Shown piece after piece: positions 8,059 to 64,000 of a stretch of 64,000 nt of DNA. The notes below the pieces were generated by a model that was not told the DNA's origin, did not search any database, and saw only the letters and a list, made by a program, of their open reading frames with translations. This DNA is from Candidatus Eiseniibacteriota bacterium. Its GTDB lineage: Bacteria > Eisenbacteria > RBG-16-71-46 > CAZAMP01. Each line of letters opens with the position of its first letter. Position 1 is the stretch's first letter. The DNA lies in contig OZ245046.1 in the NCBI GenBank assembly GCA_965224245.1, positions 3,680,001 to 3,744,000 on the forward strand. The letters run 5' to 3'. The position numbers and the translations under genes were made by a program.

Positions 8059-8144
8059 CCGCCTGCGCGCAGCGCCAGCGGCGCCCGCGCCAGCGGCGCC
8101 TGCCGCGAGCGACCTCCCCACCGGGCGAGACACGGGCGCTGCGA

Positions 8145-9261: not shown

Positions 9262-9309
9262 CGGCTCCTCCTCCCGGTCGGCGTGACGGCGTCCACGTGG
9301 CTCGCGCAC

Positions 9310-12774: not shown

Positions 12775-13091
12775 GTCGTTGGGCCTCCTGGTTGTGCTGC
12801 CGCGTGGGTATCCGACAGAGAGACACCGACGCCGGGCCAGATCGCACGCGGCCTCGCCGCCTGCGCCGCGAGCGAGTCGACGCGCGGCCCGACCCGGACG
12901 AGAGGCGGGCGTCCCGCCCTCGCCGACCATTCGAACGACGGCCGAACGCCGGGCTCCTCGTCGCCGTAAGTCGTTGTCCCGACACATGGAGATCGCTATC
13001 CTAGGGGGCTCGTGAAACCGACCATGAGCCTCCACCGGCCGCGCTCGCGCCATCCCGTGGAGCCGACTCGGAACGTCCGGCGGAGGAAGAC

Positions 13092-14957: not shown

Positions 14958-14997
14958 GGATCCGCCGACCAGTCGACCGCCGGCGCGGTGCACGACG

Positions 14998-37503: not shown

Positions 37504-37874
37504 CAGACGTCAGTCTCGGCTGGGGTCACACGTCCGTCGGCCGACCGACGACCCGGGCACGTCGAGAAGCCGAGCGAACCTGTAACGTTTCGTTTCACGC
37601 GTCGCGTCAAGGACTCCGGCGGTCGCCGATGGGACCCGTGCGCGATGCTCGATCGAAGCGTACGCCCTCGAGGACGCCCGCCACAAGCGCCGGTGCGCCG
37701 ACGGCCTCGAGCGGTTGCATGCCCGGATCGGCGCGACGCTCCGTGATACGATTCCGCGTGACGTCAGAGCGTCAGAGAGGCGGCGGCGTCACCGTAACGT
37801 CGCCGGATCCGTCTCGACCATCAGGCGTCGCGCGCGTGGCGTCGCACGCGACGTCGGCATCGGGGAGAAGGACC

Positions 37875-42895: not shown

Positions 42896-45067
42896 TCACG
42901 GGGTCAGGATGATCCGCCGGGCCGTCACCCGGCCGTCCACGCGGAGGCGTGCGTGGTAGACGCCCGCGGCGACCGGGGTCCCGTCGTCGGTCTCGCCGGT
43001 CCAGGCGACCGAGTGGGCGCCGGCGCCGGCGCGTCCGTCGATCAGTCGTCGAACCCGGCGACCGGCCGTGTCGAAGATCTCGAGGCGCACGTCCGCCGCG
43101 CGGGCGAGGACGAACCCGATCCGCGTGGCCGAGGCGAAGGGGTTCGGGCGCACCGCCATGGCCACGACCGGCCCGGGCGCGGCCTCCTCCTGCACGGACA
43201 CCGCCTCGGTCTCGGTGAAGACGTACACCCCGTCGTAGCCATCGCCCACGATCACCCGATCGCCCTCGACGGCCACGCCGCGGGCCCAGTGGCCGGTGTC
43301 GTAGAAGCCGACCTCCTCGAGCGCGGACGGATCGGTCACGTCGATCACGCGGAGACCGCCCCACTCGTCGGCCACGTAGGCACGATCGCCCTCGAGTGCG
43401 ACGTCCTGGGCCGCGTGCGGCGTATCGAAGCGCCCCACGAGGAACGGGCTCGACCGATCGGTCACGTCGATGATGCGAAGGCCCACGTTTCCGTCGGCGA
43501 CGTACGTCCGGTCGTCCCGGTAGGCGACGCGCGCCGAGGAGCCGGCGGTGGAGAGCCCGCCCACGAGCACCAGATCGGTCGGGTTCGAGACGTCGTAGAC
43601 CCGCAGGCCCTCGGCGCGCTCGGCCGTGAACACGAAGCCGGCCCCGTCCGATGTGACGCCGGTGACGGAGTTGTCGAGCCCCGCGTCGATGCGATCGAGG
43701 AAGACCGGCGACGACGGATCGGCCACGCTCACCGACGAGAAGCCCGACCCACCGTTGGCCACGTAGGCGATGGTCCCGCTCACGTGCACGTCGTAGGCCC
43801 AGTCGGGAAGGACCAGCGACCCCAGCTCGACCGGGGCCGTCGGGTCGGCGACGTCCAGGATGCGGAGTCCGCTCGCTCCGTCGGCGAGGTACGCGCGATC
43901 GGCCACCACCGACACGCCGAACGCGACATGCCCCGGTGCCGAGGCCGCGACCAGCACCGGCGCCTCGGGGATGGAGAGGTCGAGGATGCGGAGCCCGGCG
44001 ATCCAGTTGGCCACGTACGCGTGATCGCCCACCAGATCGACGTCGTACACGAAGTAGCCGCCGGGCACCGTCGTGTGCACGGCGGGCGCGGCGGGGACGC
44101 TCGCGTCGACGAGGCGGAGACCCTCGGGCCCATCGGACACGGCGAGCTGGCTTCCGGCCACGGTGACGCCGATGGCGCCGTCGGCGCCGCTTCCGGGCAG
44201 CGAGCCGATCTGCACCGGCGCGCCGGGATCGGACACGTCGATGACCCGGAGGCCGTCCTCGCTGTAGCACGCAACGAAGGCGAGACCGCGCGTCGCATCC
44301 AGCGCGACGTCCCAGAAGAGGTAGCCCCCCGAGCTCAGCGTCGAGATGGGCGTCGGCGACGTGGGATCTCCGACGTCGATCACCGTGAGCGCGAACCAGC
44401 CTGCCACGTACGCGACGTCGCCGTCGACGACGACGGCCTCGGCGAAGTCCAGCGCGGGGACGTAGGCCCCCACCTCGACCGGGGCGGAGGGATCGGACAC
44501 GTCGATCACCCGGAGGCCGTTGGTATCGTCGCACACGTACGCCAGACCGCCGGCCACGTCGACCCCCAGCGCGACGCCGGCGGTCTCGATGAAGCCCAGC
44601 GGCGCCGGATCATGCGGATCGGCGACGTCGAGAACGTGTAGCCCGTGTCCGTCCACGACGTACGCGCGATCCCCGACCACCCGGATGTCGTGTGCGATCA
44701 AGACGTCGTCGAACGCACCGACCTCGACCGGCGCTGCCGCGTCGGACACATCCACGATGCGCAGCCCGCGGCTGTCGTTTCCGACGTAGGCGAGCGTTCC
44801 GTGAATCTCGACGTCCACCACGAGCGAGGGCAGGATCGTGGACCCGAGCGTGATCGGCGCACCCGGTGTCGACGCATCGACGACGAGGAGCTCGGCGCCT
44901 CGACCCATGTAGACGAGGTCTCCGACGCGCGTGGCCGCGTTACAGGGGCCATCGGGCCACCGGCCGGTCAGCTCGATCGTCCCGGCGCGGCCGGTCGTGG
45001 GCACGGCGCTCGCGCAGAGCGCGACGAGCCACATGACGACGTCGCGGATGCGAGGACGGGGATGCAT
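42896..45067 (-). CDS. Secreted LVIVD-repeat beta-propeller protein with FlgD-Ig C-terminus
   Basis: About 13 repeats of AYVAD..GLR(I/V)(I/V)DVSDP.AP, then PNPF...FDTAGRRV...AGVYHARL. Confidence 0.88.
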   Translation of the reverse strand: MHPRPRIRDVVMWLVALCASAVPTTGRAGTIELTGRWPDGPCNAATRVGDLVYMGRGAELLVVDASTPGAPITLGSTILPSLVVDVEIHGTLAYVGNDSRGLRIVDVSDAAAPVEVGAFDDVLIAHDIRVVGDRAYVVDGHGLHVLDVADPHDPAPLGFIETAGVALGVDVAGGLAYVCDDTNGLRVIDVSDPSAPVEVGAYVPALDFAEAVVVDGDVAYVAGWFALTVIDVGDPTSPTPISTLSSGGYLFWDVALDATRGLAFVACYSEDGLRVIDVSDPGAPVQIGSLPGSGADGAIGVTVAGSQLAVSDGPEGLRLVDASVPAAPAVHTTVPGGYFVYDVDLVGDHAYVANWIAGLRILDLSIPEAPVLVAASAPGHVAFGVSVVADRAYLADGASGLRILDVADPTAPVELGSLVLPDWAYDVHVSGTIAYVANGGSGFSSVSVADPSSPVFLDRIDAGLDNSVTGVTSDGAGFVFTAERAEGLRVYDVSNPTDLVLVGGLSTAGSSARVAYRDDRTYVADGNVGLRIIDVTDRSSPFLVGRFDTPHAAQDVALEGDRAYVADEWGGLRVIDVTDPSALEEVGFYDTGHWARGVAVEGDRVIVGDGYDGVYVFTETEAVSVQEEAAPGPVVAMAVRPNPFASATRIGFVLARAADVRLEIFDTAGRRVRRLIDGRAGAGAHSVAWTGETDDGTPVAAGVYHARLRVDGRVTARRIILTP

Positions 45068-45346
45068 GGCGGCTCCTTCGGATCGAGGTCCCGAGGCCAT
45101 CGTCGCCCGTCGCGCTCGTCGACGCGCCGCCGAACCGAGCGCGAGGCGTCCGTCGCCGGGGTAGTCCCGGCCCGAGCTGCGCGTGATACATCGCGTACGG
45201 CGCACGCCGTCCCGCTCCGCCACCTGCGTCGCGCCAACCGATCTCACAACGCGTTGCCGAGAAGGGCGTTGGGGCGTATCCTGGGCGCGTTTCCGTCAGC
45301 GCCCACCGCGCGCCGGACGCGGCGCCACGCCCCGCCAGGAGGACCG

Positions 45347-50243: not shown

Positions 50244-51634
50244 ATCGTCCTCGAGAAAATGGGCTTGTCGTCGGGTCGCGCCGTCAGGTAGCGATCGAAG
50301 AGCATGCAGAGGTTGCGCACGAACAGCCGGCCCCGCGGCGTGACCTCGAGCCGATCCGACCCGAGGGCGAAGAAGTCGGGGTCGATCGTGTCCCCCAGCT
50401 CCTCGAGCTCCGCGTCGAAGTACTCCAGGAAGTGGACGCCATGATGCTCGCGGATCGCGTCGAAGCGAACCTCGAAGTTGCACATCAGCTCGCGGATGAC
50501 CTCGGCGCGGACGAGATCGTCGTCGTCGAGCACATACCCCCGATGAACGGGCAGCTCGTCCCGATCGAGGCTCTCGTAGTAGCGCTTGAGCACGAGACCG
50601 TTCTGGGTGAAGGCGTTCTGGACGTAGCTGATGGACGAGATGCCGAACGCCAGCATGTCCTGGGCGGGGCGCGTCGTGTAGCCCATGAAGTTCCGGTGGA
50701 GCCGCTTCTCGCGCCGGGCCACGGCCAGCTCGTCCTCGGGCAGCGCGTAGTGGTCCATGCCGATCTGCTCGTACCCGGCGTCCACGAAGTCGCGAATCGT
50801 GTCGAGGTAGATCTGGAACTTGTCGTCCACCGACGGCAACGTCGCCTCGTCGATCCGGCGCTGATGGCCCTTGATCCACGGCACGTGCGCATAGCTGTAG
50901 ACGGCCAGACGGTCGGGGCGCATCTCGCGCACGATCTCGCGCGTGTACCGGAATGCCTCGGGGCTCTGGTTGGGCAGCCCGTAGATCAGATCGAAGTTGA
51001 CGCCGGTGAAACCGGCCTCGCGACACGCATCGTAGATCTCGCGGGTCACGTCCACCGTCTGCGGCCGGTTGACCGACGAGAGGACGGTCATGTCGAAGTC
51101 CTGCACGCCGAGCGAGACCCGGTTGAATCCGAGCCCGCGGAGCGTGGCGATGTGATCGCGCGTCGTCACCGTGGGGTCGATCTCGATCGAGAGCTCCGCT
51201 CCGTCGAGCATCGTGAAGCGTTCGCGGATCACGCCGCCCAGACGTTCGAGCTGCTCGGGGCTCAGAAACGTCGGCGTTCCCCCGCCGATGTGGAGCTGGA
51301 TCACGTTCCGGCGGGTACGGAGATCCCGCTGGACGAGATCCATCTCCCGGGCGAGTGCGTCGATGTAGCGATCGGCGGCCCCCTGGTGCTTGGTCACGAC
51401 CACGTTGCAGCCGCAGAACGTGCATCGCTCCTTGCAGAACGGCACGTGCACGTAGACCGACAGCGGCGCGTCGGGTCGCTCGTCGGCCGCGGCCAGGTGG
51501 CGGCGGTGGATCGCCTCCTCGAAATCGGGCTTCCATACCGGCGCCGTCGGATAGCTCGTATAGCGCGGTCCGGGCCGGTCGTAGCTACGGAGAAGCGCCG
51601 CGTCGACACCGTCCAGCCAGCTTCCGGTGCTCAT
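50240..51634 (-). CDS. hemN: Oxygen-independent coproporphyrinogen III dehydrogenase (radical SAM)
   Basis: GPRYTSYPTA, YVHVPFCKERCTFCGCN, GGGTPT, IGMDHY and RNFMGYT. Confidence 0.95.
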   Translation of the reverse strand: MSTGSWLDGVDAALLRSYDRPGPRYTSYPTAPVWKPDFEEAIHRRHLAAADERPDAPLSVYVHVPFCKERCTFCGCNVVVTKHQGAADRYIDALAREMDLVQRDLRTRRNVIQLHIGGGTPTFLSPEQLERLGGVIRERFTMLDGAELSIEIDPTVTTRDHIATLRGLGFNRVSLGVQDFDMTVLSSVNRPQTVDVTREIYDACREAGFTGVNFDLIYGLPNQSPEAFRYTREIVREMRPDRLAVYSYAHVPWIKGHQRRIDEATLPSVDDKFQIYLDTIRDFVDAGYEQIGMDHYALPEDELAVARREKRLHRNFMGYTTRPAQDMLAFGISSISYVQNAFTQNGLVLKRYYESLDRDELPVHRGYVLDDDDLVRAEVIRELMCNFEVRFDAIREHHGVHFLEYFDAELEELGDTIDPDFFALGSDRLEVTPRGRLFVRNLCMLFDRYLTARPDDKPIFSRTI

Positions 51635-52722
51635 CCCTGCCTCCCTGCCACGAGGGGTGCGTTCCCGCGCTCGTAGGCCCGGACGCACGAAACCAGAACG
51701 CCGACGTTCTCGGGTGGAACGCCGGGCAGGATCCCGTGTCCGAGGTTGAACACGTAGCCGCCGCCGGTCGCCGCCCCTGCGTCGAGCGTCGCGCGCACGC
51801 GATCGCGGATCGTGTCGGGGTGGCCGAACAGGATCGTCGGATCCAGGTTTCCCTGGAGCGCCCGGCCCGGAAGGCGGCGGTGCGCGGCCGTCAGCGGCGT
51901 TCTCCAGTCCACGCCGACGACGTCGGCATCGATCTCGGCGATCACATCCAGAAGGTGCGACCCCCCGTTCACGAACAGGATCCCCGGCGCACCCTTGGCG
52001 CGCAGGCGCGAGAAGATGTCCGCCAGGTACGGGGCCGCGAACGTGCGGTAGTCCTCGGCCGAGAGCATGCCGCCCCAGCTGTCGAAGACCTGAAAGGCGG
52101 ATGCCCCCGCGTCGAGCTGGGCGCTCAGGTGCTCGACGATCATGTCGGCAAAGCGGCGGAACAGCGCATGCGCGAGATCGGGCTCGGAGAACATGAGACC
52201 CTTCAGCCGCGCGAACTGCTTCGACGAGCCGCCCTCGACCGCATAGCTGGCCAAAGTGAACGGGGCGCCGGTGAAGACGATCAGCGGCGTGCCGTCGAGT
52301 CGCCGAACCGCCAGCTCGACCGCGTCCGTCACGTAGGCCAGGTCGCGACGCGTGTCGACGCGACGCAGACGCTCGACGTCCGCCGCGGTCCGGACGGGGT
52401 TGGCGATCCTGGGTCCGCCCTCGGGATAGGCGACCTCGAGGCCCATCGCCTCCAGGGGAACCAGGATGTCGCTGAACAGGATCGCGGCATCGAACCCGAA
52501 CCGCCGGATCGGCTGGAGCGTCACCTCCACCGCCAGCTCCGGCGTCCGGCACATCTCCAGGAACGAGGCGCGCTCGCGAACGGCCCGATACTCGGGCAGG
52601 TAGCGCCCCGCCTGACGCATGAGCCACAGGGGGATGCGCTCGGTCGGCTCGTTGCGGCACGCCCTGAGGAACAGTGCGTTCACGTCGCCGTTCGCCTGGC
52701 GGTCGCCGGGTGTCGTGCTCAT
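51631..52722 (-). CDS. hemE: Uroporphyrinogen decarboxylase
   Basis: WLMRQAGRYLPEY, AAILFSDIL, QGNLDP and FNLGHGI. Confidence 0.96.
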   Translation of the reverse strand: MSTTPGDRQANGDVNALFLRACRNEPTERIPLWLMRQAGRYLPEYRAVRERASFLEMCRTPELAVEVTLQPIRRFGFDAAILFSDILVPLEAMGLEVAYPEGGPRIANPVRTAADVERLRRVDTRRDLAYVTDAVELAVRRLDGTPLIVFTGAPFTLASYAVEGGSSKQFARLKGLMFSEPDLAHALFRRFADMIVEHLSAQLDAGASAFQVFDSWGGMLSAEDYRTFAAPYLADIFSRLRAKGAPGILFVNGGSHLLDVIAEIDADVVGVDWRTPLTAAHRRLPGRALQGNLDPTILFGHPDTIRDRVRATLDAGAATGGGYVFNLGHGILPGVPPENVGVLVSCVRAYERGNAPLVAGRQG

Positions 52723-54089
52723 CGCTCACCTCCGATCGCGGCCCCCGATGGACGTCCGTGCGCGATCGCGAGGGCCTCTCCGATGGCCGTCACCGTGCGG
52801 CGCAGCGTATCCGCGTCGTGCGCGGCGGAGATGAACCCGACCTCGTAGCCCGACGGCGCGAAGTAGATGCCCCGCTCGAGGAGCGCACCGTGGAATGCCG
52901 CGTACCGATCGATGCCGTCGGTCTGGATCTCGTGGAACGAGCGCGGCGCCGGCGCGGGCTGGAACGCGAGCCAGAAGATCGAGCCGGCCCGGACGAGCGT
53001 CACGGGCACGTTCAGGGTCACGATCGCGTCTCGCACGCCTCGCTCGAACGCCGCGCTCTTCTCCTCGAGCGCCTCGAAGAACCCGTCGCGGAGCACCTCC
53101 CGCAGCGCCGCGGTTCCGGCCGCCATCGCGACCGGGTTGCCCGAGAGCGTGCCCGCCTGATAGACCGGCCCCATCGGGGCCAGGAGCGCCATCAGGTCCG
53201 CTCGGCCGCCGAAGGCCGCCATCGGCATGCCGCCGCCGATGACCTTGCCGAACGTACGGAGATCGGGCTCGATCCCGTACAAACCGGCAGCGCCGGCGGG
53301 ACCCACGCGGAAGCCACTGATCACCTCGTCGAAGATCAGGAGCGCGCCCGCGTCGCGCGTCGAGCGGGCCAGGGTCGTGAGAAACTCGGGCCGCTGAAGC
53401 AGCAGCCCCGCGTTCGCCGGAATGGGCTCCACGATGACCGCGGCCACCTCGGCGCCCCGCTCGGCGAAGAGGCGCGCGACCGCGTCCTCGTCGTCGAGAG
53501 GAAGCACGATCGTCTGCCGCGTCATGTCGGCCGGGACACCCGAGGAGGACGGGGTCCCGAACGTCGCGAGCCCCGATCCGCCCTTCACGAGCAGGTGATC
53601 CACGTGTCCGTGGTAGCAGCCCTCGAACTTCACGATCAGATCGCGGCCGGTCGCCCCGCGCGCCAGGCGCACGGCCGACATCACGGCCTCGGTGCCGCTG
53701 TTGACGAACCGCACGCGTTCGAGCCCGGGCACCGCTCCGGTGACGAGTTCGGCCAGCTCGACCTCGCGCCGCGAGGGGGCGCCGAAGCTGAGCCCCTCGG
53801 CGGCCGCGGACGTCACCGCATTCACCACGGCCTCGTGCGCGTGCCCGAGGATCAGCGGGCCCCAGGAGCAGCAGTAATCGACGAAGGTGTTGCCGTCCTC
53901 GTCGACGAACGTCGCCCCTTTCGCCTCGCGGAAGAAGATGGGTGTTCCGCCGACCGCGCCGAACGCGCGGACCGGGGAGTTCACGCCACCGGGCATCAGC
54001 GCGCGAGCCCGGTCGATCAGCTCGCGCGAACGGTCCAGGGTCGGACCGCCCCGCTGCGAGCGCGCGGTGTCGGGGGTCTTCAGAGCCAT
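52719..54089 (-). CDS. hemL: Glutamate-1-semialdehyde 2,1-aminomutase
   Basis: PGGVNSPVRAF, SWGPLILGH, NSGTEA, FDEVISGFR, GKVIGGG and YQAGTLSGNP. Confidence 0.96.
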   Translation of the reverse strand: MALKTPDTARSQRGGPTLDRSRELIDRARALMPGGVNSPVRAFGAVGGTPIFFREAKGATFVDEDGNTFVDYCCSWGPLILGHAHEAVVNAVTSAAAEGLSFGAPSRREVELAELVTGAVPGLERVRFVNSGTEAVMSAVRLARGATGRDLIVKFEGCYHGHVDHLLVKGGSGLATFGTPSSSGVPADMTRQTIVLPLDDEDAVARLFAERGAEVAAVIVEPIPANAGLLLQRPEFLTTLARSTRDAGALLIFDEVISGFRVGPAGAAGLYGIEPDLRTFGKVIGGGMPMAAFGGRADLMALLAPMGPVYQAGTLSGNPVAMAAGTAALREVLRDGFFEALEEKSAAFERGVRDAIVTLNVPVTLVRAGSIFWLAFQPAPAPRSFHEIQTDGIDRYAAFHGALLERGIYFAPSGYEVGFISAAHDADTLRRTVTAIGEALAIAHGRPSGAAIGGER

Positions 54090-55075
54090 CGGTTCTCCAG
54101 TACGTCGCGTGCGTGATACGTGATCAAGATGTCCGCCCCGGCGCGGGCGATGGCCGTCAGGTTCTCGAGCACGATCGCGCGCTCGTCCGCGAGCCCCTCG
54201 CGGGCAGCCAGCTTCACCATCGAGTACTCGCCGCTGACGTTGTAGGCGGCCAGGGGAAGCGTCGTCGCGTCGCGCACCCTCCGGATGACGTCCAGGTAGG
54301 CGAGCGCCGGCTTGACCATCAGGATGTCCGCTCCCTCCTCCTCGTCGATCAGCGCCTCATGGAGCGCCTCGCGCGCATTGCGTGCGTCCATCTGATACGA
54401 GCGGCGATCGCCGGACGCCGGTGCGGAGTCGGCGGCGTCACGGAACGGGCCGTAGTACGCGGAGGCGTACTTGACCGCGTAGGACATGATCGCCGTGTTC
54501 GTGAACCCCTCCCGATCGAGCCCGGTCCGGATGGCGGCCACGCGCCCGTCCATCATGTCCGACGGCGCGACGACGTCGGCGCCTGCCCGTGCGTGTGAGA
54601 GCGCCATGTCCGCCAGAAGGGGCAGGGACGCGTCGTTGTCGATGACGCCGCCGTCGAGCACACCGCAGTGCCCGTGGTCGGTGTAGGCACACAGACACAC
54701 GTCGGTGGCAACCGTGACGTCGTCGCCGAAGCGGCTCTTCACCGCGGCGACGGCGCGGGAGACCAGCGCGTCCTCCTTCGTGGCGGCGCTCGCGACCGCG
54801 TCCTTGTGGTCGCTGAGACCGAACAGGAGCACGCGCCGGATGCCGCGTTCGAGGTCCCGTTCGACGGTCTCGAGAAGCGTGTCGGGGGTTTCCCGGTGAA
54901 TGCCGGGCATGCTCGGGATCGGCTGGCGATCCCCACCGCGACCGGGCGCGCCGTCGCGCACGAAGTGCGGCTGCATCATCTGGTCGGGATGGAGACGGGT
55001 CTCGGCGACCAGATCCCGGATGCGGGCGCTCGCGCGAAGCCGCCGCGGCCTCGCGATCAGTCCTTCGTCAAGCAT
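54080..55075 (-). CDS. hemB: Porphobilinogen synthase (Zn type)
   Basis: DVCLCAYTDHGHCG, APSDMMDGRV, YGPFRDA, MVKPAL and YNVSGEY. Confidence 0.96.
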   Translation of the reverse strand: MLDEGLIARPRRLRASARIRDLVAETRLHPDQMMQPHFVRDGAPGRGGDRQPIPSMPGIHRETPDTLLETVERDLERGIRRVLLFGLSDHKDAVASAATKEDALVSRAVAAVKSRFGDDVTVATDVCLCAYTDHGHCGVLDGGVIDNDASLPLLADMALSHARAGADVVAPSDMMDGRVAAIRTGLDREGFTNTAIMSYAVKYASAYYGPFRDAADSAPASGDRRSYQMDARNAREALHEALIDEEEGADILMVKPALAYLDVIRRVRDATTLPLAAYNVSGEYSMVKLAAREGLADERAIVLENLTAIARAGADILITYHARDVLENRWL

Positions 55076-56715
55076 GCGATGAGACCTTCCATCGTGTGGC
55101 GTGTCGCCTCGGTGAACACATCCACCGAGCGCGCACGGGCCTCGGCCGAGGTGACCGGTCCGATCGTGACGACGCGGGCACCGGCGGGAACGTCCGTGAC
55201 GTCCGTGAAGTGGCGGACCGCCGACGGCGACGCGAAGAGGACGTAGTCCGCGCCGGCGAGCGCCTCCACGTCCAGCGTGGACGGGTCGGTGGCTCGCGTC
55301 CGATAGACCGGCAGCGTGACCACGTCGTGGCCCGCCGTGGCCAGTCCATCGGCCAGCACCGTGCGTCCCTCACGCGCGGACGGGATGAGCACGCGATACC
55401 GCCCGGTTCCGTTCTGCGAGAGCATCGCGTCGAGGAGCGCGTCCGAGATCGCCTGGGCCGGCACGAGGTCGGGCTCACGCCCCAGCTCCCGGAGGGCGGC
55501 CGCGGTCCCGGGACCGACGACGCCGATCCTGGCGCCCTCGGGCAGTGTCCGCCGCGCTCGTGCGAGTCGCTCACCGAGCTGCCGGACGGCGTTCGCACTC
55601 GGAAACAGGATCCAGTCGTAGGCGTCGAGCTCGGCCAGCGTGGATGCCTCGAGATCGGGATCGGAGTCGGGGACGATCTCGAGCACCGGGAAAGATACGA
55701 CGACGGCACCCTGCGCCTCGAGACCCGCGATCAGAGGATCCTCGTCGGCAGCCTCGCGCGTCACGACGACGCGCTTGCCGGCGAGGTTCCGACCGGGACC
55801 GACAGACGCGGCGCGGATGCGCTCGTGGGCATGTCGCGCGAGAGCCAAGGAGTCACGAGCGCTCGCGCGAACGCGCACCGCATGGGTGCCGTCGTCGTGG
55901 GAGTGATAAACCATGATCGTGTGGCGATCGGAGTCGTCGGGATCGGTCAGGATGTGCGCACCGAGAGGAAGCGAGCATCCGCCGCCGAACATGCCCAGGA
56001 GCGAGCGCTCCGCGTCGACGACAGCCGCCACGCCGGCATCGTGCAGCATCGCGACCGGCCCCACCACCCGGTCGTCGCCTGCCCGCACCTGAACCGCGAG
56101 CGCCCCCTGACCCGGGGCGGGAACGAACACGTCGACGTCCAGCGGCACCGCGATCAGGCCCCCGAGATCCAGCTCCAGGCGCGATACGCCGGCCTGGGCG
56201 ATCAGGATGGCGTCGTGCGCGCCCTCGCGGAGGCGACGCACGCGCGTGGGCACGTTGCCGCGGAGCGACTCCACCGCGAGATCGGGGCGGAGGTTCAGAA
56301 GCTGTGCGCGACGCCTCACCGAGCTCGTGCCGACCCGTGCGCCGGGCGCCAGCGGCAGCGGCGCCATCTTCGGATCGTGGTGCGCCTCGGCCACGAGCAG
56401 GAGGTCACGCGGGTCGGCGCGCTCCGGAACCGCGGCGATCGCGAGGTCCGGTGGCATCTCGGTCGGAAGGTCCTTCAGCGAGTGCACGGCGATGTCGATG
56501 CGCCGTTCGCGCAGCGCCTGCTCGAGCTCGGCGGTGAAGAACCCCTTCCCCTCGATCTCGATGAAGGGACGGTCGTCGATCCGGTCGCCCTGGGTGCGGA
56601 TGATGTCGATGCGCGACTCCATCGCCGCGCGCTCGCGCAGGAGCGACTGAACGTGGCGGGCCTGCCACAGGGCGAGGTCGCTCCCGCGACTTCCGATGAC
56701 GAGGGGAGTGTTCAC
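55057..56715 (-). CDS. hemC: Fused hydroxymethylbilane synthase/uroporphyrinogen-III synthase (HemC-HemD)
   Basis: GSRGSDLALWQA, AVHSLKDLP, GTSSVRR, RGNVPTR and GGCSLPLG, followed by HemD motifs VVVTR, F.SANAV, VGPGTA, YRT, FASPSAV and IGPVT. Confidence 0.93.
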   Translation of the reverse strand: MNTPLVIGSRGSDLALWQARHVQSLLRERAAMESRIDIIRTQGDRIDDRPFIEIEGKGFFTAELEQALRERRIDIAVHSLKDLPTEMPPDLAIAAVPERADPRDLLLVAEAHHDPKMAPLPLAPGARVGTSSVRRRAQLLNLRPDLAVESLRGNVPTRVRRLREGAHDAILIAQAGVSRLELDLGGLIAVPLDVDVFVPAPGQGALAVQVRAGDDRVVGPVAMLHDAGVAAVVDAERSLLGMFGGGCSLPLGAHILTDPDDSDRHTIMVYHSHDDGTHAVRVRASARDSLALARHAHERIRAASVGPGRNLAGKRVVVTREAADEDPLIAGLEAQGAVVVSFPVLEIVPDSDPDLEASTLAELDAYDWILFPSANAVRQLGERLARARRTLPEGARIGVVGPGTAAALRELGREPDLVPAQAISDALLDAMLSQNGTGRYRVLIPSAREGRTVLADGLATAGHDVVTLPVYRTRATDPSTLDVEALAGADYVLFASPSAVRHFTDVTDVPAGARVVTIGPVTSAEARARSVDVFTEATRHTMEGLIACLTKD

Positions 56716-56737
56716 GACGTGCCACCGATTCTTCCAG

Positions 56738-57847
56738 CTAGAGCATGCCTGCCGCGACGGGGTCGACGCAGAGCACGTCGACGAGCCGGCGGCTCATGGC
56801 TGCCGGATACGTGACCACCGCCTCCGCGACCGCCCGCTCGGCGGCGTCGACGGCCACGACGGCTTTCTCGGAGTTGCTGCGCGACTCCTCGCGCAGATCG
56901 TCGATCGTGACCACGCGCACGTCCGGCAGATCGTCCAGGTCGGGGTCGGTGTCGCGCGGCGCGGCCAGGTCGACCACCAGCAACCGATCGGGGTCGCCGG
57001 CGCGCGCGGTCCCGAGCCGCGGCGCAGGACGCGGCGCATCGAGGAGCGGCGCCAGCGACGACCGATCGAGGATCGCATGCGGCGCGGAGGTAGCCGTCAC
57101 GATCACGTCCGTGGGCGGGGGATCGGCGAGGAACGCCTCGAGCGACATCACGCGAGCGCCGTGACGCTCGGCGGTCGCGCGGATCTTGGCCGGCGTGCGA
57201 TTCACGAGACGGAGGTTCGTGTAGCCGCGGCCCGAAAGGAACATCGCGATCTTCGAGCTCATCTCGCCGCTGCCGATGATCGCGATCGCCGAATCGCTCG
57301 CGCGGTGGCCGGCGGTCACGACGCCCACGGCGAGCGTCGCCATCGAGACGGAGCCGGCTCCGAGCGAGGTCTTCCGGCGCACGTCGCGCGCGCAGCGGAA
57401 GGTCTCCTCGAAGATGCACTCGAGCCACGAGCAGGCGATGCCGGCGGCATGCGACGCGTGGTAGGCCCGCTTCACCTGTCCGAGGATCTGCGCCTCGCCC
57501 ACGACCATCGAGTCGAGCGAGCAGGCCACCCGGAAGAGGTGGCGCACCGCGGCGTCCCCCCGGTGCACGTGGAACGCGCGGCGCCACGTCGGATCGGGCA
57601 GGACGCCCCGCAGCCGTGCGAAGTAGCCGAAGACGCGCCCGAGCAGCTCGCTGTCGGGCGTGTGACGGGTGTCGGCGACGACGAACTCCACCCGGTTGCA
57701 GGTCGGCACGTACACGAGCTCGTCCACACCCAGCGCGCGGTGGAGGTCCCGGAGGCTCCCCGGGTCTTCGGACGGCAGATGAAACACGTCGCGAAGCGCC
57801 CCGTCACTCTCTCTAAAGCTAGTCCCGACAACCACATACCGTTCCAT
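56738..57847 (-). CDS. hemA: Glutamyl-tRNA reductase (short C-terminus)
   Basis: TCNRVE, HLFRVACSLDSMVVGEAQILGQVK, GSGEM, NRT and DLAAPRD. GGAGG RBS before ATG 57847. Confidence 0.92.
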   Translation of the reverse strand: MERYVVVGTSFRESDGALRDVFHLPSEDPGSLRDLHRALGVDELVYVPTCNRVEFVVADTRHTPDSELLGRVFGYFARLRGVLPDPTWRRAFHVHRGDAAVRHLFRVACSLDSMVVGEAQILGQVKRAYHASHAAGIACSWLECIFEETFRCARDVRRKTSLGAGSVSMATLAVGVVTAGHRASDSAIAIIGSGEMSSKIAMFLSGRGYTNLRLVNRTPAKIRATAERHGARVMSLEAFLADPPPTDVIVTATSAPHAILDRSSLAPLLDAPRPAPRLGTARAGDPDRLLVVDLAAPRDTDPDLDDLPDVRVVTIDDLREESRSNSEKAVVAVDAAERAVAEAVVTYPAAMSRRLVDVLCVDPVAAGML

Positions 57848-57887
57848 CACCGACCTCCGACGCTCGATGTCTCTTCCGCAGCAGGAG

Positions 57888-57931
57888 AGTCTATGAGGGC
57901 GGCGGTGTCGAGTTGTCATGCAGTTGTCATG
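57888..57931 (-). promoter_or_regulatory. hemA promoter with OmpR/PhoB-type direct repeat TGACA-N6-TGACA
   Basis: AGTTGTCATG repeated at 57911 and 57922 (11-bp period). Minus-strand -10 TAGACT at 57893-57888. Confidence 0.72.
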
Positions 57932-57995
57932 ACGGAGGTAGGTGGTTTCCGAGACGTCTCCGTGTGATGATCCGCGCTCGCTGGAGGGAGACACG

Positions 57996-59378
57996 ATGCG
58001 ACCGATCCGCCCCATCACGACCTGGATCTTGCCGGCCGCGATCGCGCTGGCCCCGGTGACTGACGCCATGGCCCGGGACGCCGGGGCCGCCGACCTGACC
58101 GAAGGCGGCTCGACCACCGGCGAGGCCGCGGCGTCGGCGTTCGCGTCGGCGTTCTTCCGGGGCGATCGCGTCGCGTTCGCGGACCGGCTCTCGGAGGACA
58201 TGTCCGACGCGCTCGACGATGCACAGTACCGATCGCTCCTGGCGTCGCTCGCGGACCAGCTCGGCGCGCTGGAGTCGATCGGCGCGCCCTGGCCGGAGTC
58301 CGACGTGCAGGGCTTCCAGCGCTATCGGATCCCCCTGGCCTTCGCCGCCGACACGCTGGACATGCGCCTCGTCTTCGACGGCGCCGGCGACGTGGCGGGC
58401 CTCTTCTTCGTCCCCCATCTCGCGCGGCCGAGCGGCCCCGAGCCGGAAGCACCGGTGCGCGAGGAGGACGTGATCATCGGCGGCGATCCGGAGACCGGCC
58501 TCGGCGGAACGCTGTCGTTGCCCGACGGCCCCGGTCCGTTTCCGGCCCTGGTGCTCGTGCACGGATCGGGGCCGAACGACCGGGACGAGACGATCGGGCC
58601 CAACAAACCGTTTCGGGACCTCGCCTGGGGGCTCGCCACACGCGGCGTCGCCGTCTTGCGCTACGACAAGCGATCGTACGCGAGGCCCGAGACGCTGCAG
58701 CCGCTGGGCACCTCCCTGACCGTGGCCGAGGAGGTGATCGACGACGCGCTCGACGCGGTGCGCGTCGTCAGCGCGACCCCGGGGATCGACGCGACGCGTG
58801 TGTTCCTGTGCGGACACAGCCTCGGTGGCACGCTGGCCCACCGGATCGCCGCGACGGACGGCGTGATCGCCGGCGTCATCGTGCTCGCCGGGGCCACGCT
58901 TCCCCTGCCCGAGAAGATCGTCGAACAGACCTGGTACATCGCCAACGTCGACGGCGTCGTGACCGAGCACGAGCAGCGGAGCTACGACGCAACCCGGCAG
59001 GCCGCCGAGACGATCCGCCGCGCGCTGGACGGCGAGATCCCCGAGCCCGAGGGGCCGCTCCTGGGCGCCCCGGTCGGCTACTACCGGGATCTGGGCGCAC
59101 ACGACCCGGTCGATCTCGCCTGGCGTCTCCGACTGCCGACGCTCGTGTTGCAGGGCGATCGGGACTATCAGGTGACGCTGGCCGACTTCTCGCGCTGGGA
59201 GGAGCTCCGGGGCGAGGCGTTCGCATGCCTCGTCCGGTATCCGGATCTCGACCACCTGTTCCACGCCGGCGAAGGACCGTCGCAGCCCATCGACTACGAG
59301 CGCCCCGCCCCCGTCGATGCCCGCGTGATCGACGACATGGCCGCGTGGATCGAACAGGGGACCTGCCGGTCCCGCTGA
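57996..59378 (+). CDS. Secreted alpha/beta hydrolase with N-terminal DUF3887-like domain
   Basis: VHGSGPNDRDE, LRYDKR, GHSLGG nucleophile, QGDRDYQV and LDHLF. Confidence 0.88.
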   Translation: MRPIRPITTWILPAAIALAPVTDAMARDAGAADLTEGGSTTGEAAASAFASAFFRGDRVAFADRLSEDMSDALDDAQYRSLLASLADQLGALESIGAPWPESDVQGFQRYRIPLAFAADTLDMRLVFDGAGDVAGLFFVPHLARPSGPEPEAPVREEDVIIGGDPETGLGGTLSLPDGPGPFPALVLVHGSGPNDRDETIGPNKPFRDLAWGLATRGVAVLRYDKRSYARPETLQPLGTSLTVAEEVIDDALDAVRVVSATPGIDATRVFLCGHSLGGTLAHRIAATDGVIAGVIVLAGATLPLPEKIVEQTWYIANVDGVVTEHEQRSYDATRQAAETIRRALDGEIPEPEGPLLGAPVGYYRDLGAHDPVDLAWRLRLPTLVLQGDRDYQVTLADFSRWEELRGEAFACLVRYPDLDHLFHAGEGPSQPIDYERPAPVDARVIDDMAAWIEQGTCRSR

Positions 59379-59434
59379 CGCCGGGATCGCCCATGCGTCC
59401 CCGCCCGCGCGATCGAGAACCAGATCTACAGCGC

Positions 59435-59713
59435 GCGATCGCCGGGTGCGCCGGCATGCTGCCGTTCGTCGACAATGCGGACATTCACCACTCGCAGTGC
59501 GGCATCTTCACCCCCAGCGACTTTCCGTTCGCTCGGGACGTGGTGGCCAGCGAGAGCATGCCGAACACCGAGACCGTCGTCGTGCACGACGTCGATCTCG
59601 AGCTTCTCCGGCGCAATCGCCAGGCCGGAACCGTCCGTCCCTGGACCGATCGCATCAAGGACGTGTACGCCGTCCGCTACACCGACCCCGAGCTGGGTCC
59701 GATCGAGTACTGA
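59435..59713 (+). pseudogene. C-terminal remnant of a carbon-nitrogen hydrolase (nitrilase family)
   Basis: AIAGCAG.LPFVDNADIH..Q.GIFTPSDFPFARD....E..PNTE.V...DVDLELLR...GTV..W.DR. The catalytic N-terminal part is absent. Confidence 0.72.
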
Positions 59714-59728
59714 GCGGTCGCGCGGGCC

Positions 59729-60007
59729 ATGGACCTCATCCAGAGTCGTCGCGGCCGCGCGTTCCTTCTCGCGCTCCTCTACTTCGCCGAGGGCGCACCC
59801 ATCGGGTGGCTCTGGTGGGCGCTTCCCACGCGACTTCGGGCCGCGGGGGCGCCGCTGGACGAGGTCAACGGGATCGCGACCGGGCTCGGCGGCGACGTCG
59901 GTCCGGAGTCCTACGCCGGGGCGTGGCTCGTCCTGGCGGGTGTGGCGCTCCTGGGACTGATCGCGCCGCCGCGGACCCGCCCCCCGTCCGAGCCCCTACC
60001 GAGGTGA
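59729..60007 (+). pseudogene. Internally deleted MFS transporter (AmpG-like) remnant
   Basis: First helix LYFAEGAPIGWLWWALP.RLR joined directly to a last-helix-like segment; only 92 aa. Confidence 0.6.
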
Positions 60008-61123
60008 CGGCACCTCGCCGGGCGCGCGGGCCCCGGAGTTCCGGTGGCACCACATGCAGGCGCGCCCGAAGCCGTGGTCGGCGCCCTCGCTGTAGTGGCA
60101 CTTGACGCACAGCGCGCGCTGGTCGGGATGCGGGTACGGACTCGGAATCGGATATGACCCCGAGGCCGCGCCGTCGTCGGCGAGGAATCGCACGTTGGGA
60201 TCCCATCGGGTGGCGGCCGGCCCGCTGGAGGCGTGCGCCCGGTGGCAGGTCAGGCAGGTCAGTCGACTCGTCGACGACGCTCCGGTCGTGCCCGACACGG
60301 TGGCTCCGGGATCCTCCAGCGCGACCTCGGGGATGTAGGCGGTCGCGGCGTCTCCCCCGCCGGGATCGGTGGGGCCGGCGTAGGCGTTGTACGCGTCACG
60401 CACCGCGGAGCCCAGCAGCGCCGAGACCGGATGTTCGAACCCTCCGCCGCCTTCACGGTGAACGCTCGCATGACAGTTCCCGCACCAGTCGCTGACGCCG
60501 CGCCGGTAGGCCGTGTGGTTCGTCGGGGACTCTCGATCGGCGTACAGGTCGATGCCGATCGCATCGGGCGCCCCGGCGGTGAAGGCGAACCCCGAGGCGT
60601 CGGTGGAGCCGGCATCGCGCAGCATCCGGAACCGGGGGTTGCCGTGAGGGTCGTGACAGCTCGTGCACGTCAGGTCGGCGGACGCGTAGGTTCCTCCCGG
60701 GGCCGTCGCATGCCGGGGATCGACCGGGATCCCCCAGCTCGCGCTGGCCACGTTGTGGCCGGCATGACTTCCGTCGATCGGCGAGAGGCCGCCACCGATC
60801 CCGTCGTTCAGGTTGTCCTCGTAGAGAAACGTGAAGTTGCCCGCGCCGCGCTCCAGAGGAGGAGCGGTGGGATCGACACCGAGCACCGCACCGTTCTCGG
60901 TGGCGTGACAGGCGAGACAGACGTCCGTGCTGGTTGCGTGACGCAGCAGGAACGGGGCGCCGAAGGGGTCGTCGGGATCGACCGGAAGGCCGTCCTCGCT
61001 CCCGTGCATCGTATGACAGCCCGCACAGCTGGCTACCCCGCCGTCGTGAAACGCGGAGACGGGCCCCGACGGGAGACCCGCGAGAACGACGGCCGATAGC
61101 GCGCCCGCGAGCCGTGTCGTCAT
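59996..61123 (-). CDS. Secreted OmcS-like multiheme c-type cytochrome with seven CxxCH motifs
   Basis: Signal peptide, then FHDGGVASCAGCHTMH. Heme motifs CAGCH, CLACH, CTSCH, CGNCH, CLTCH, CVKCH and CMWCH. Confidence 0.9.
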   Translation of the reverse strand: MTTRLAGALSAVVLAGLPSGPVSAFHDGGVASCAGCHTMHGSEDGLPVDPDDPFGAPFLLRHATSTDVCLACHATENGAVLGVDPTAPPLERGAGNFTFLYEDNLNDGIGGGLSPIDGSHAGHNVASASWGIPVDPRHATAPGGTYASADLTCTSCHDPHGNPRFRMLRDAGSTDASGFAFTAGAPDAIGIDLYADRESPTNHTAYRRGVSDWCGNCHASVHREGGGGFEHPVSALLGSAVRDAYNAYAGPTDPGGGDAATAYIPEVALEDPGATVSGTTGASSTSRLTCLTCHRAHASSGPAATRWDPNVRFLADDGAASGSYPIPSPYPHPDQRALCVKCHYSEGADHGFGRACMWCHRNSGARAPGEVPSPR

Positions 61124-61169
61124 GCCACGGGATCTCATCGCGTGGGGATCCCGGCGCCCAATCCGTGCA

Positions 61170-61742
61170 TCAGCCGGTGCTCCCGGTCGACCCGGCGCGG
61201 CGAACGACCGATTCGAGGCGTCCGGCGAGCGTGTCCTCGCTCGGTCCCGACGTCAGGAGGAGCACGAGCGACACCATGGCGAACGGTACGACCACCATGA
61301 ACGCGTAGGTGATGAACACGAGCACGAGTCCGATCACGGAGACCAGCTCCTGGACGGCCCACACGATCACGAACGACTGCTGCAGCCGTGCCAGCGCGCT
61401 GACCATCGGGCGGGCGACCTCGGACACGCCGGTGAGATCCGCTCTCTTCGGCGGGCTCGACACCGCGGCAATCAGTGCCTCGTCGTCGGTGAGACGGCTC
61501 CGGAGCCGTATCGAAACCACCGCCAGCACGGCCGCGGCCGCCAGCCCGATCCCCAGCATGCTCGTCGGCGAAAGCGGAAGCCCGGCGGCGATCTCCTCGC
61601 GGCGCTCCGGCGAGACGTTCATCGTGACCAGGTAGGCCACCAGCGTGTACAGCAGCGGCGCGGACGAGAACGCCAGCCAGATCGTGCGAAGCGCCCTGAA
61701 CCGTGGTGAGAAGACGTCCCTCAGCTCTTCGGCCAGTGTCAT
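61170..61742 (-). CDS. Hypothetical membrane protein (about four TM helices)
   Basis: 190-aa ORF with hydrophobic helices, 46 nt upstream of the cytochrome on the same strand. Confidence 0.65.
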   Translation of the reverse strand: MTLAEELRDVFSPRFRALRTIWLAFSSAPLLYTLVAYLVTMNVSPERREEIAAGLPLSPTSMLGIGLAAAAVLAVVSIRLRSRLTDDEALIAAVSSPPKRADLTGVSEVARPMVSALARLQQSFVIVWAVQELVSVIGLVLVFITYAFMVVVPFAMVSLVLLLTSGPSEDTLAGRLESVVRRAGSTGSTG

Positions 61743-61929
61743 CGTGCGCCCCCCCGGCTCTCGTCCTCATATGTCGACGGTAACACCGCAATTTACCGCC
61801 GGTGGGCATCGGCTCGCAAGACGACGCGCCGGCGACGAGACCGTGGGGACGGCAGACGGTCGTGCATGCGGTACAATGCCGTCTTCGCGAGGCTTTCAGG
61901 AGGTGCACGTCCCGCGCCGGAGCCCGACC

Positions 61930-64000
61930 TTGTCGCTTGCCCCCGAAGACATTCTCGACGCCGCACTCGCCCTGCCGGCCGGTGAACGGTCCGCGTATGT
62001 GGAGTCGAGGTGCGGCGACGATTCCGAGCTGCGTCGCCGGATCGAGCGCCTGATCGGCCTGCACGCGCGCTTCCCCGAGCCACCCCGGCCTCCGGATCGG
62101 CAGGCACGGCGCGCGCCGCGCGTCACGTCCGTGGCCGGATACGTGATTCGCGGCGAGCTCGGTCGCGGCGGCATGGGCCGGGTGCTCCTGGCCGAGGATC
62201 CCGAGCTCGGCCGCGAGGTCGCGATCAAGATGCTACCCGACGCGCTGGCCCGCGATCCCGATCGCATCCGGCGGTTTCGTCGCGAGGCGAGAACGCTGGC
62301 CGGACTTCGTCATCCCGGCATCGCGATCATCCATCGTTTCGGCGTCGACGGCGAGCATCCCTACCTCGTGATGGAGTGCGTTCCCGGCAAGACGCTCGGG
62401 GAGCGAATCGCCGCCGGCCTCGAGCCCGACGAGGCCATCGCGATCGTGGCCCAGGCGGCGGATGCGCTCGCCGCGGCTCACGACGCCGGCGTCGTCCATC
62501 GCGACGTCACGCCGGCCAACGTTCTCGTGGGCCCGGACAGTTCGGTCAAGCTCGTGGACTTCGGTCTGGCGAAAGCGCCGGACGAGACGGCCACCGGAGA
62601 GAGGCCGGCCGCGTCGGCCGGCGTGATCGGAAGCCCCGGATACACGAGTCCCGAGCAGCTGCGCGGCCAGCCCATCGACGCGCGCTCGGATCTGTGGTCG
62701 CTCGGCTGCGTCCTGTTCGAGTGTCTGGCCGGCCGGCCCGCGTTTCCCGGAGACGTGGCGCTGGAGCGCCTGATGGCCGTCTGGTACGACGAGCCGGACT
62801 GGGCGGCCTTGCCCGAGGCGGCGGCCCGGTGCTGGCGCCCCCTTCTCGAACGTTGCCTGGCCAAGGCCCCCGAGGACCGACCGGCGAGCGCGGCCGAGGT
62901 CGCGCGCGAGCTTCGAGGGACCCCCGGTTCGCCCCCCGGCCCGCCTCCTCGCCACAGATCGCTCGTGCCATCACGCGTCGCAACGGCGGTGGGACTCGTC
63001 GTGATCGGGGTGGTGAGCGTGCTCGTGTGGTCGTCTCGCCGTCCGGGACCGGTCACGCCTCCGGTCGAGCGCGCGGTCGCGACGAGACAGATCACCTTCG
63101 ACGGTCTCCCGAAGCGAGCCGCGATCTCGCCCGACGGCGACCTCGTCGCCCTCAGCGCCGGCGGCACCCAGCTGATGTTCCTCGATCTCGAGACGGATGC
63201 GCGGGTGCGGTCGGCTCGATTCGGATCGATCCGGGATCTCTTCTGGACTCGCGACGGGCGGGAGCTGGTCGTCGTCGGCAACGAGGAGACCCGGGGGCGG
63301 CGGCTGGTCACGCACGTCGTCTCGCGGGGCGATTCGGTGGCCCGTCGCGTCGGGCCACCGGGCTTCGTCGCGTGCGATGCCTCACCGGACCGACGCCGAT
63401 TCATCGGCTACGACACGCGATCGGCGGATCCGGACCACATCGCGCTCCTGGATCGGGACACCGGTGTCATCACGAGCCTCGCGTATCCACCCGGCCTGCG
63501 CGGCCGACCGGACGTTCACTGGTCTCCGGCCGCCGACCTCTTGCTGGTGGGAGGCGCGGGCGCCGACAGCGTGCGGGCCGCGGCCTGGGTCGTTCCCGTC
63601 GGCAGGGGTGAGCGCCGGCGCGTCGAGACCGGCGACGGAAGCCGTGGCTGGGCGTGGTCGCGCGACGGCACCGAGATCTACTATCGATCCGGTGGGAACG
63701 CGTTGATGGCGCTCCCGGTGGATCCCCGGAGCGGGCGCACTCGGGGTCGGGCGCGCGTCCTTCTCGATCGGTGTCCCGAGTCCGTGTCGCTGTCGTCGTC
63801 GATCCCCGCGCGGGCGGTGTTCGTGCGCACGTTCTCGTCGGCCAATCTCTGGTGGGCCGAGCGCGACGACGCCGACGGATCGGCGCCGATCGGCTGGACG
63901 CGCTTGACGAGCGGCACCTGGTCCGAGCGAGGATGCCGGCTCTCCCCCGACGGCCGCCGGGCGGTGTTCGTGCGTGCGGACCGCCATCCCGACCTGTTCG
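61930..64000 (+). CDS. Ser/Thr protein kinase with TM segment and TolB/PD40-like repeats, runs off the right edge
   Basis: Manual translation: LGRGGMGRV, VAIK, HRDVTPAN, DFGLAK, GSPGYTSPEQ, SDLWSLG, then ISPDG, WSP and WSRDG repeats. Start TTG 61930 (GGAG upstream) or GTG 61903. Confidence 0.85.
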   Translation, partial: MSLAPEDILDAALALPAGERSAYVESRCGDDSELRRRIERLIGLHARFPEPPRPPDRQARRAPRVTSVAGYVIRGELGRGGMGRVLLAEDPELGREVAIKMLPDALARDPDRIRRFRREARTLAGLRHPGIAIIHRFGVDGEHPYLVMECVPGKTLGERIAAGLEPDEAIAIVAQAADALAAAHDAGVVHRDVTPANVLVGPDSSVKLVDFGLAKAPDETATGERPAASAGVIGSPGYTSPEQLRGQPIDARSDLWSLGCVLFECLAGRPAFPGDVALERLMAVWYDEPDWAALPEAAARCWRPLLERCLAKAPEDRPASAAEVARELRGTPGSPPGPPPRHRSLVPSRVATAVGLVVIGVVSVLVWSSRRPGPVTPPVERAVATRQITFDGLPKRAAISPDGDLVALSAGGTQLMFLDLETDARVRSARFGSIRDLFWTRDGRELVVVGNEETRGRRLVTHVVSRGDSVARRVGPPGFVACDASPDRRRFIGYDTRSADPDHIALLDRDTGVITSLAYPPGLRGRPDVHWSPAADLLLVGGAGADSVRAAAWVVPVGRGERRRVETGDGSRGWAWSRDGTEIYYRSGGNALMALPVDPRSGRTRGRARVLLDRCPESVSLSSSIPARAVFVRTFSSANLWWAERDDADGSAPIGWTRLTSGTWSERGCRLSPDGRRAVFVRADRHPDLF

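Follow-up and report, generated by a model that had tools for sequence, protein, structure and literature searches.

OmcS of Geobacter sulfurreducens (PDB 6EF8/6NEF), a hexaheme nanowire subunit, is the reference conductive protein wire, and within its family it is the only protein known to polymerise. Its His16, which we take to be a ligand of heme 5 in the neighbouring subunit, presumably lies beside heme 1 and far from heme 5 in the OmcS fold. One heme of OmcS is coordinated by a histidine of the adjacent subunit, and the hemes of the Geobacter octaheme nanowire OmcZ are all ligated within one subunit (PMC9473688); OmcZ is described as branching, with a solvent-exposed heme (PMC13712944). 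The omcS gene has a companion cluster, described as an eight-gene block, GSU2500-2493 (PMC12977616). In Geobacter, OmcS reportedly requires this dedicated cluster for its folding and secretion, with proposed roles for OscH in folding, OscE/F/G in secretion and OscD in morphology (PMC13194489, citing Shen et al. 2025). Geobacter also has dispersed paralogs (OmcJ GSU0701, OmcT and GSU2501), which are OmcS-family copies, some of them located away from the companion cluster; OmcS itself, unlike any of these paralogs, is known as a wire former (PMC12977616).

The first-pass annotation of the gene studied here presented it as an OmcS-like nanowire candidate outside Geobacter. Such an occurrence is not new, as OmcS homologs have already been published for Geoalkalibacter and Anaeromyxobacter (PMC10954620) and, in 2021, for Krumholzibacteria (PMC7914226), and OmcS genes have been assigned to MAGs of Thermodesulfovibrionia and Desulfobulbaceae (PMC8478452); for Ignavibacteriales and Zixibacteria the latter states only iron-reduction and iron-oxidation genes and names no gene. 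Among the papers listed by a full-text search on OmcS and heptaheme, none deals, by title and abstract, with an OmcS-family protein of seven hemes. Shen et al. (2025) or its supplements may catalogue such a variant or its distribution. Within the literature covered, the seven-heme tail subfamily described below and its separation from a cluster-linked six-heme type appear to be new.

Identification of an OmcS-family cytochrome gene

The gene lies near the end of a 64,000-nucleotide stretch of DNA, which was analysed as a whole and which we call the window. The features of the gene and its product are as follows:

59996..61138, minus strand: seven-heme OmcS-family cytochrome gene, 380 aa plus stop (from ORF, translation, homology and predicted fold)
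61123, minus strand: alternative start of the cytochrome ORF, the internal Met6
61052..61138, minus strand: putative Sec-type signal peptide, residues 1-29, with VSA before F30 (read from the sequence)
61004..61051, minus strand: mature N-terminal arm, residues 30-45, with His2, the heme-1 CxxCH and the His16 equivalent, H45 (from numbering and conservation)
60083..61051, minus strand: OmcS-homologous six-heme core, residues 30-352 (from the VIA alignment to OmcS 1-407 and ligand conservation); core CxxCH motifs at residues 38, 74, 158, 219, 295 and 344, distal histidines at residues 31, 45, 128, 165, 236 and 302
59999..60082, minus strand: C-terminal tail without OmcS counterpart, residues 353-380 (from sequence)
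60074-60076, minus strand: H355, in the tail
60044-60058, minus strand: seventh CxxCH (CMWCH), residues 361-365
61170..61742, minus strand: gene for a predicted membrane protein of 190 aa, lying 31 bp upstream of the cytochrome ORF; no Pfam or NCBIfam family

Of the gene span given in the first-pass annotation (59996-61123) the lower end stands; its upper end corresponds to the internal Met6, and the ORF runs from 61138. Either start, Met1 or Met6, leads to the identical predicted cleavage site between VSA and FH. The residue before this site, A29, is nearly invariant in the subfamily, and F30 aligns with residue 1 of the mature OmcS chain both in the phmmer match and with the family profile, so that at the sequence level, and with the cleavage itself predicted, the mature chain begins F-H as in OmcS. 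Besides the signal peptide we saw no lipobox, sorting domain or dedicated channel for the cytochrome. A scan of positions 59300-62200 for promoters and terminators found none, and a search for sequencing runs listed no RNA run; the four matching runs belong to one study and are probably of the source sample.

When the window protein was compared by phmmer with all PDB sequences, OmcS (6ef8_A) was the sole match at E ≤ 10 (1.6e-32, in two stretches), and the match is thus not due to chance. A profile built from 150 members of the family (alignment A2) gave a single alignment with OmcS (E-value 2.5e-112), in which OmcS residues 1-407 fall on profile positions 30-351, the next PDB matches scoring 0.0012 or worse; a poor full-length alignment to OmcS, which the first-pass annotation had named as grounds for rejecting its proposal, is therefore not what we found. 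The only Pfam or NCBIfam entry above cut-off was a generic doubled-CxxCH domain. An AlphaFold2 model built on the same alignment (mean pLDDT 90.5, pTM 0.86) matched OmcS in a Foldseek search of the PDB with an E-value of 1.7e-19 (TM 0.67/0.63), all other matches being at 1.9 or worse, and VIA-align superposed residues 30-352 of the model on OmcS 1-407 (Z 29.3, rmsd 2.9 Å over 317 residues; next Z 5.9). By sequence, the window protein is a genuine OmcS-family member with OmcS as its only solved relative, and the OmcS fold is found in its predicted model.

The two proteins are ~28-35% identical and have in common the order of six CxxCH motifs, six distal histidines including His16, and the mature N-terminus F-H. 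However, the window protein is compact since it is missing two long OmcS insertions (~34 residues after DPHG and ~23 before heme 6), and while OmcS ends three residues past its sixth heme histidine, the window protein runs on for a further 32 residues, which include a seventh CxxCH. The motifs quoted in the first-pass annotation all occur in the translation in the order given, and the OmcS strings given there match the OmcS chain in the HMMER output. Its description of a compact OmcS homolog also holds, given the end-to-end alignment to OmcS 1-407 and the predicted fold; its heme set, however, ended at the sixth motif and overlooked the CMWCH beyond it. By their descriptions the dispersed Geobacter paralogs, which are hexahemes of OmcS length from Desulfuromonadia, are set apart from this compact seven-heme protein. 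OmcZ has no sequence or fold match to it in the phmmer and Foldseek searches of the PDB.

Conservation of the heme ligands

To compare ligands we aligned 202 full-length members (at least six CxxCH motifs and at least 330 aa), comprising the query, 113 of its 120 closest homologs and 88 of the 150 listed cluster representatives. Exactly 12 histidines were essentially invariant: those of the six core CxxCH motifs and H2, H16, H99, H136, H207 and H273 (mature numbering). All 12 are present in the query, in 112/113 close homologs and in 80/88 representatives. As this is the number that six bis-histidine hemes need, none is spare. The His16 equivalent (H45), which is the histidine after the first CxxCH and is residue 16 when F30 is residue 1, stands at the OmcS spacing, as had been noted from the sequence, and occurs in all 113 close homologs and in 81 of the 88 representatives; the other distal histidines, whose absence would have spoken against the annotation, are likewise conserved. 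Two further histidines, H179 and H198 (mature numbering), are conserved in the compact clade (98% and 97%, respectively); either could in principle serve as a cis ligand, a point that counts against ligation in trans.

A seventh heme motif in a C-terminal tail

With seven CxxCH motifs the window protein departs from the exactly six hemes of an OmcS nanowire subunit. Among its 120 closest homologs, seven motifs were counted in 54, six in 63 (some of these being N-terminally truncated), eight in two and five in one; the two eight-heme proteins (P0011 and P0052) have one more unit added to the same tail. H355 and the seventh motif occur together: 56 of 113 close homologs have both, 53 have neither and only four are discordant, and both were present in 1/88 cluster representatives. 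This co-occurrence suggests that H355 serves heme 7 rather than heme 5. On these sequence grounds the tail defines a recurrent seven-heme subfamily. In the AlphaFold2 model this region has a pLDDT of 92 at residues 351-360, falling to 77 at residues 361-370. In our reading H355 would serve as the distal ligand of heme 7, which would pack on heme 6 and, by analogy with the OmcS filament, lie at the subunit end that faces the neighbouring subunit. As the tail starts right after heme 6, it could also sterically block an OmcS-type junction. The likeness to OmcZ is functional only, the extra heme being a possible site for side entry or exit of electrons if compared with the description of that protein (PMC13712944).

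Genomic context and the six-heme paralog

The cytochrome gene is beside a heme-biosynthesis run at 51631-58201 (hemA, a hemC/D fusion, hemB, hemL and hemE), with a plus-strand hydrolase gene in between. The upstream gene for the 190-aa membrane protein may be co-transcribed with it but is not a conserved partner: none of the 80 related loci has a counterpart of this protein, of the alpha/beta hydrolase, of HemA or of a 92-aa ORF, and two have one of the kinase. Several other proteins of the window have T9SS-type C-terminal domains, whereas the cytochrome is without a T9SS-type sorting domain.

The genome (6.94 Mb in 27 contigs, 97.4% complete) encodes one other family member, a six-heme paralog at C1:457116-458120, 3.3 Mb from the window gene. 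It is 53% identical to the window protein, shares with it the compact core and the N-terminal arm, and ends shortly past heme 6. The paralog is part of a cluster on one strand (C1:449-460 kb, locus L003) that encodes an NHL beta-propeller protein, a 753-aa protein, a 196-aa LpoB/CsgG-like lipoprotein, a 362-aa protein, a 565-aa double prolyl isomerase (PPIase) and cytochromes with 26 and 16 heme motifs; an NCBIfam scan of the cluster proteins gave no dedicated family. In domain types and gene order this cluster resembles the Geobacter omcS-companion cluster, where OscH and OscD are the prolyl isomerase and the beta-propeller, respectively. As a separate observation, and a lead only, Thermodesulfobacteriota is the commonest phylum in some of the Atlas clusters that resemble the 753-aa protein. 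Each of five markers of the paralog cluster was found in 40-44 of the best 80 loci (41-45 including L003), the adjoining cytochrome gene being of the six-heme type. All five are at the paralog locus and none is in the last 14 kb of the window; unlike omcS, the window gene is thus without a companion-type cluster.

Elsewhere among the best 80 loci, 13 have a cytochrome with a seventh heme motif in a C-terminal tail; left out of this count were L007, with a fragmented ORF, and L017-L019, in which the seventh motif is elsewhere in the protein. None of the five markers was found within nine of the 13 (L004, L005, L006, L008, L009, L013, L037, L058 and L060, of which L004 and L060 are only ~4.4 kb long), and the other four (L069, L072, L073 and L078) are adjoined by a six-heme copy and a beta-propeller gene. 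An all-against-all comparison of the 14 seven-heme loci found in common the cytochrome itself, shadow ORFs on the opposite strand and, in the four tandem loci, the cluster genes. The neighbours of seven stand-alone loci were unrelated, including a short-chain dehydrogenase, an integrase, a sulfatase, an aldo-keto reductase, SecDF, a class I (Glu/Gln-type) tRNA synthetase and a peroxiredoxin. In five genomes with a stand-alone seven-heme gene we found a second OmcS-like copy in three, the 753-aa protein in two and a match to the lipoprotein profile in two. Genome G032 (94% complete) has a seven-heme copy and in our searches gave no second OmcS-like gene, 753-aa homolog or lipoprotein-profile match, and in G005 we likewise found a seven-heme copy alone and no cluster markers. 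The lack of a dedicated export cluster, together with presence in genomes without one, argues that the window protein works independently of the six-heme system.

As to the machinery that an exported multiheme cytochrome would use, CcmE, CcmF and CcmC are encoded at C1:531-537 kb, so the cytochrome c maturation genes that the first-pass annotation proposed to look for are present, while a search of the genome did not find ResB. The genome has 37 ORFs with three or more CxxCH motifs (up to 26). Secretin genes were found here as well as in G032 and G005, which makes a general route out of the cell possible.

Distribution and phylogeny

The family is large. A word-indexed protein search gave 1980 matches at E ≤ 1e-5 among 8000 scored candidates; an exhaustive search of 50%-identity representatives gave 694 at E ≤ 0.001, 54 of them at E ≤ 1e-30; and in species-representative genomes a relative is encoded in at least 522 of at least 591 matched stretches. 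By MAG label the best 80 loci belong to Eisenbacteria, Krumholzibacteriota, Zixibacteria, Ignavibacteria, Calditrichaeota, Fibrobacteria, Acidobacteriota (Thermoanaerobaculia and Polarisedimenticolia) and Delongbacteria, with a few labelled Alpha- or Gammaproteobacteria or Polyangiaceae. In MAGs with the labels Eisenbacteria, Krumholzibacteriota, Zixibacteria, Ignavibacteria, Fibrobacteria and Acidobacteriota the family is common, and so is the six-heme gene with its cluster. Within the class of the window genome it is patchy, being found in 3/31 genomes searched (the window's own included), and a search of one genome of the same taxonomic family (97% complete) found no OmcS-family member. The contig is not from Desulfuromonadia, an origin that would have undone the first-pass proposal, as its genome is of the same class as G032, the genome of locus L005, which is labelled Candidatus Eisenbacteria. 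The nearest named relatives of the window HemB are in Krumholzibacteriia and Acidobacteria MAGs (69% identity in both cases), and in view of these relatives and the T9SS-type domains the earlier suggestion of an FCB-type lineage was a fair one.

A quick maximum-likelihood tree was made from 127 sequences with the tail columns removed and the root placed at the midpoint; it took in all 55 tail-type sequences and 10 odd ones, while the compact and long six-heme sequences were sampled at 35 of 70 and 26 of 64, respectively, with the genome's own paralog added to the compact set. Forty-two of the 55 tail-type sequences fall in one group of 48, with an SH-aLRT support of 83 that is below the 95 mark, and the others form a grade; the tail-type label requires at least eight changes on the tree. 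Long OmcS-type sequences are nested among compact ones in a group of 40 (support 99). As the tree has only a midpoint root, we make no claim on whether six or seven hemes is the ancestral state.

Possible roles of the seven-heme cytochrome

The best explanation of these observations as a whole, to which we give a probability of about 0.5, is an exported, stand-alone seven-heme cytochrome of OmcS fold that self-associates through a trans histidine-heme bond. The protein would be exported by Sec and then matured by the Ccm system; it would keep the complete OmcS core (six hemes, six distal histidines and the OmcS fold, minus two loops) and carry a seventh heme on its C-terminal tail (H355, then CMWCH), probably next to heme 6. 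Its subunits would associate head to tail by the OmcS-type bond into a dimer, oligomer or filament, in which the electron path would be lengthened or branched by the extra heme wherever two subunits join. The protein would act as a paralog independent of the secretion/assembly-type cluster that flanks the six-heme copy. Heme occupancy, the position of heme 7, self-association and cellular location are parts of this reading that we infer. The association rests on the N-terminal arm: because the His16 equivalent is kept and no other family-invariant histidine is spare, head-to-tail ligation in trans is the most likely mode, and because this histidine has no cis target in the OmcS fold, the subunits probably join head to tail, which would bring heme 7 to or near the junction. 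Polymerisation is plausible on the same sequence grounds, since the trans-ligand histidine is retained. We counted against this explanation the missing companion cluster, the missing T9SS sorting domain and the standing of OmcS as the only wire former among the Geobacter paralogs. A homodimer prediction, limited to two copies of the mature protein with four hemes only and run with no controls, gave an ipSAE of 0.00 in both runs and was weighed neither for nor against self-association.

The same evidence bears on three other explanations. The stand-alone gene with its unrelated contexts, its occurrence in genomes without a detectable cluster, and a signal peptide unaccompanied by lipobox, sorting domain or dedicated channel would all suit a periplasmic carrier that does not polymerise and that shuttles or stores electrons between components of the inner and outer membranes, its heme coordination being completed in cis by the tail or by another histidine (the conserved H179, H198 and H355 are at hand). 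We consider such a carrier rather unlikely, if a serious candidate, as an His16 equivalent invariant in 113/113 close homologs is hard to explain without a trans contact, and H355 tracks the seventh motif, which suggests that it belongs to heme 7 and not to heme 5. The protein might, at the other extreme, be secreted and polymerise into long extracellular conductive filaments for long-range extracellular electron transfer, as the first-pass annotation had it. It has the fold and ligand set of OmcS, trans-ligand histidine included, its genome is rich in multiheme cytochromes, and the secretins offer a possible generic route across the outer membrane; however, the secretion/assembly-type cluster is linked to the six-heme paralog and not to the window gene, the seventh-heme tail is at the end of the subunit that makes the OmcS junction, the run search listed no RNA data, and among the Geobacter paralogs only OmcS is known as a wire (PMC12977616), so that we hold this outcome to be unlikely. 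An accessory role in the filament of the six-heme paralog, as a cap, base or adaptor joined through the shared N-terminal arm with heme 7 leading to another redox partner, would account for the presence of both copies in one genome, for the six-heme copy and beta-propeller gene beside 4/13 seven-heme loci and for the second OmcS-like copy in three of the five seven-heme genomes examined. Yet G032 (for all its completeness) and G005 gave only a seven-heme copy and no cluster markers, and here the two genes are 3.3 Mb apart; we regard this role as improbable.

A wider form of the self-associating reading, which is speculative and which we think distinctly unlikely, is that the seven-heme tail proteins are a separate class of filament with OmcS-type trans-histidine joints, an extra heme at each junction that makes a seven-heme chain or a side branch, and no companion cluster. 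If this were true, self-assembling cytochrome wires would be widespread among uncultured Eisenbacteria, Krumholzibacteriota, Fibrobacteria and Acidobacteriota. The analysis separates two gene types, a compact six-heme type with a conserved secretion-type cluster and a seven-heme tail variant that is usually solitary, and metagenome marker surveys that score 'OmcS' therefore lump at least two gene types with different contexts. The occurrence of both types in one genome would offer a clean test of what makes the OmcS fold polymerise and of whether an added heme alters the wire.

Multiheme cytochromes of the genome

The genome to which the window belongs (G000; the whole genome, contig C1) was found to contain 37 open frames with at least three CxxCH motifs, among them frames with 26, 19, 16 and 14 motifs. 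One group of these lies around a six-heme OmcS-like paralog of the window's cytochrome:

L003 (G000:C1:444001-464000), 4068-15324, minus strand, six-heme OmcS-like paralog cluster

The members of this cluster, all on one strand, include an NHL beta-propeller, a 753-aa protein, an LpoB/CsgG-like lipoprotein and a 362-aa protein. A double prolyl isomerase also belongs to it, as do cytochromes carrying 26 and 16 heme motifs, and the same gene order was seen again in about half of the best 80 related loci. Within G000, this six-heme paralog is the better nanowire candidate. Several more multiheme clusters are present on C1, at about 739-748 kb, 1128-1132 kb and 1422-1432 kb.

Gene neighborhood of the seven-heme cytochrome

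The window's cytochrome gene lies beside a heme-biosynthesis run; other features were also identified in the window:

51631-58201, minus strand, hemA, hemC/hemD fusion, hemB, hemL and hemE
9310-13053, 23219-23761, 37485-39455 and 42896-45247, large repeat proteins (FG-GAP, PD40, beta-helix, LVIVD)
30164-33340 and 61645-63999, plus strand, two Ser/Thr protein kinases, each with a fused beta-propeller region of the WD40 or PD40 type

P0002, which is the cytochrome's closest homolog, and P0276, a near homolog of HemB, are listed with the same source, with a longest contig of 8542 bases for both; therefore, the linkage between the heme run and the cytochrome gene may be common to a near relative too. 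The kinase at 61645-63999 is divergent from the cytochrome operon, and its listed frame overlaps one end of the membrane-protein gene that precedes the cytochrome gene. The large repeat proteins terminate in FlgD-Ig or Por_Secre_tail domains, C-terminal domains that are a type IX secretion sorting signal; unlike these, the cytochrome has no domain of this kind.

Variation among OmcS-like proteins

At three loci a tandem pair of six-heme and seven-heme OmcS-like genes and a beta-propeller gene have a large multiheme frame immediately upstream, and a single seven-heme gene was located in an Eisenbacteria-titled relative (G032):

L069 526-5031, L073 1651-5112 and L078 1130-5194, each an open frame with 42 CxxCH motifs (lengths 1150-1500 aa)
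L005 10854-11912, plus strand (G032:C19:139422-140471), seven-heme gene

The G032 frame continues upstream through one TGA, and a phage-type integrase gene is found ~1.8 kb away. At L017, L018 and L019 the seven-motif OmcS-like protein is of another type, whose extra CxxCH precedes the fifth heme motif instead of lying in a C-terminal tail; the cluster markers are absent near these genes too. Two family members, P0011 and P0052, have eight hemes, with two extra CxxCH units in the C-terminal tail, which therefore looks to be extendable by modules.
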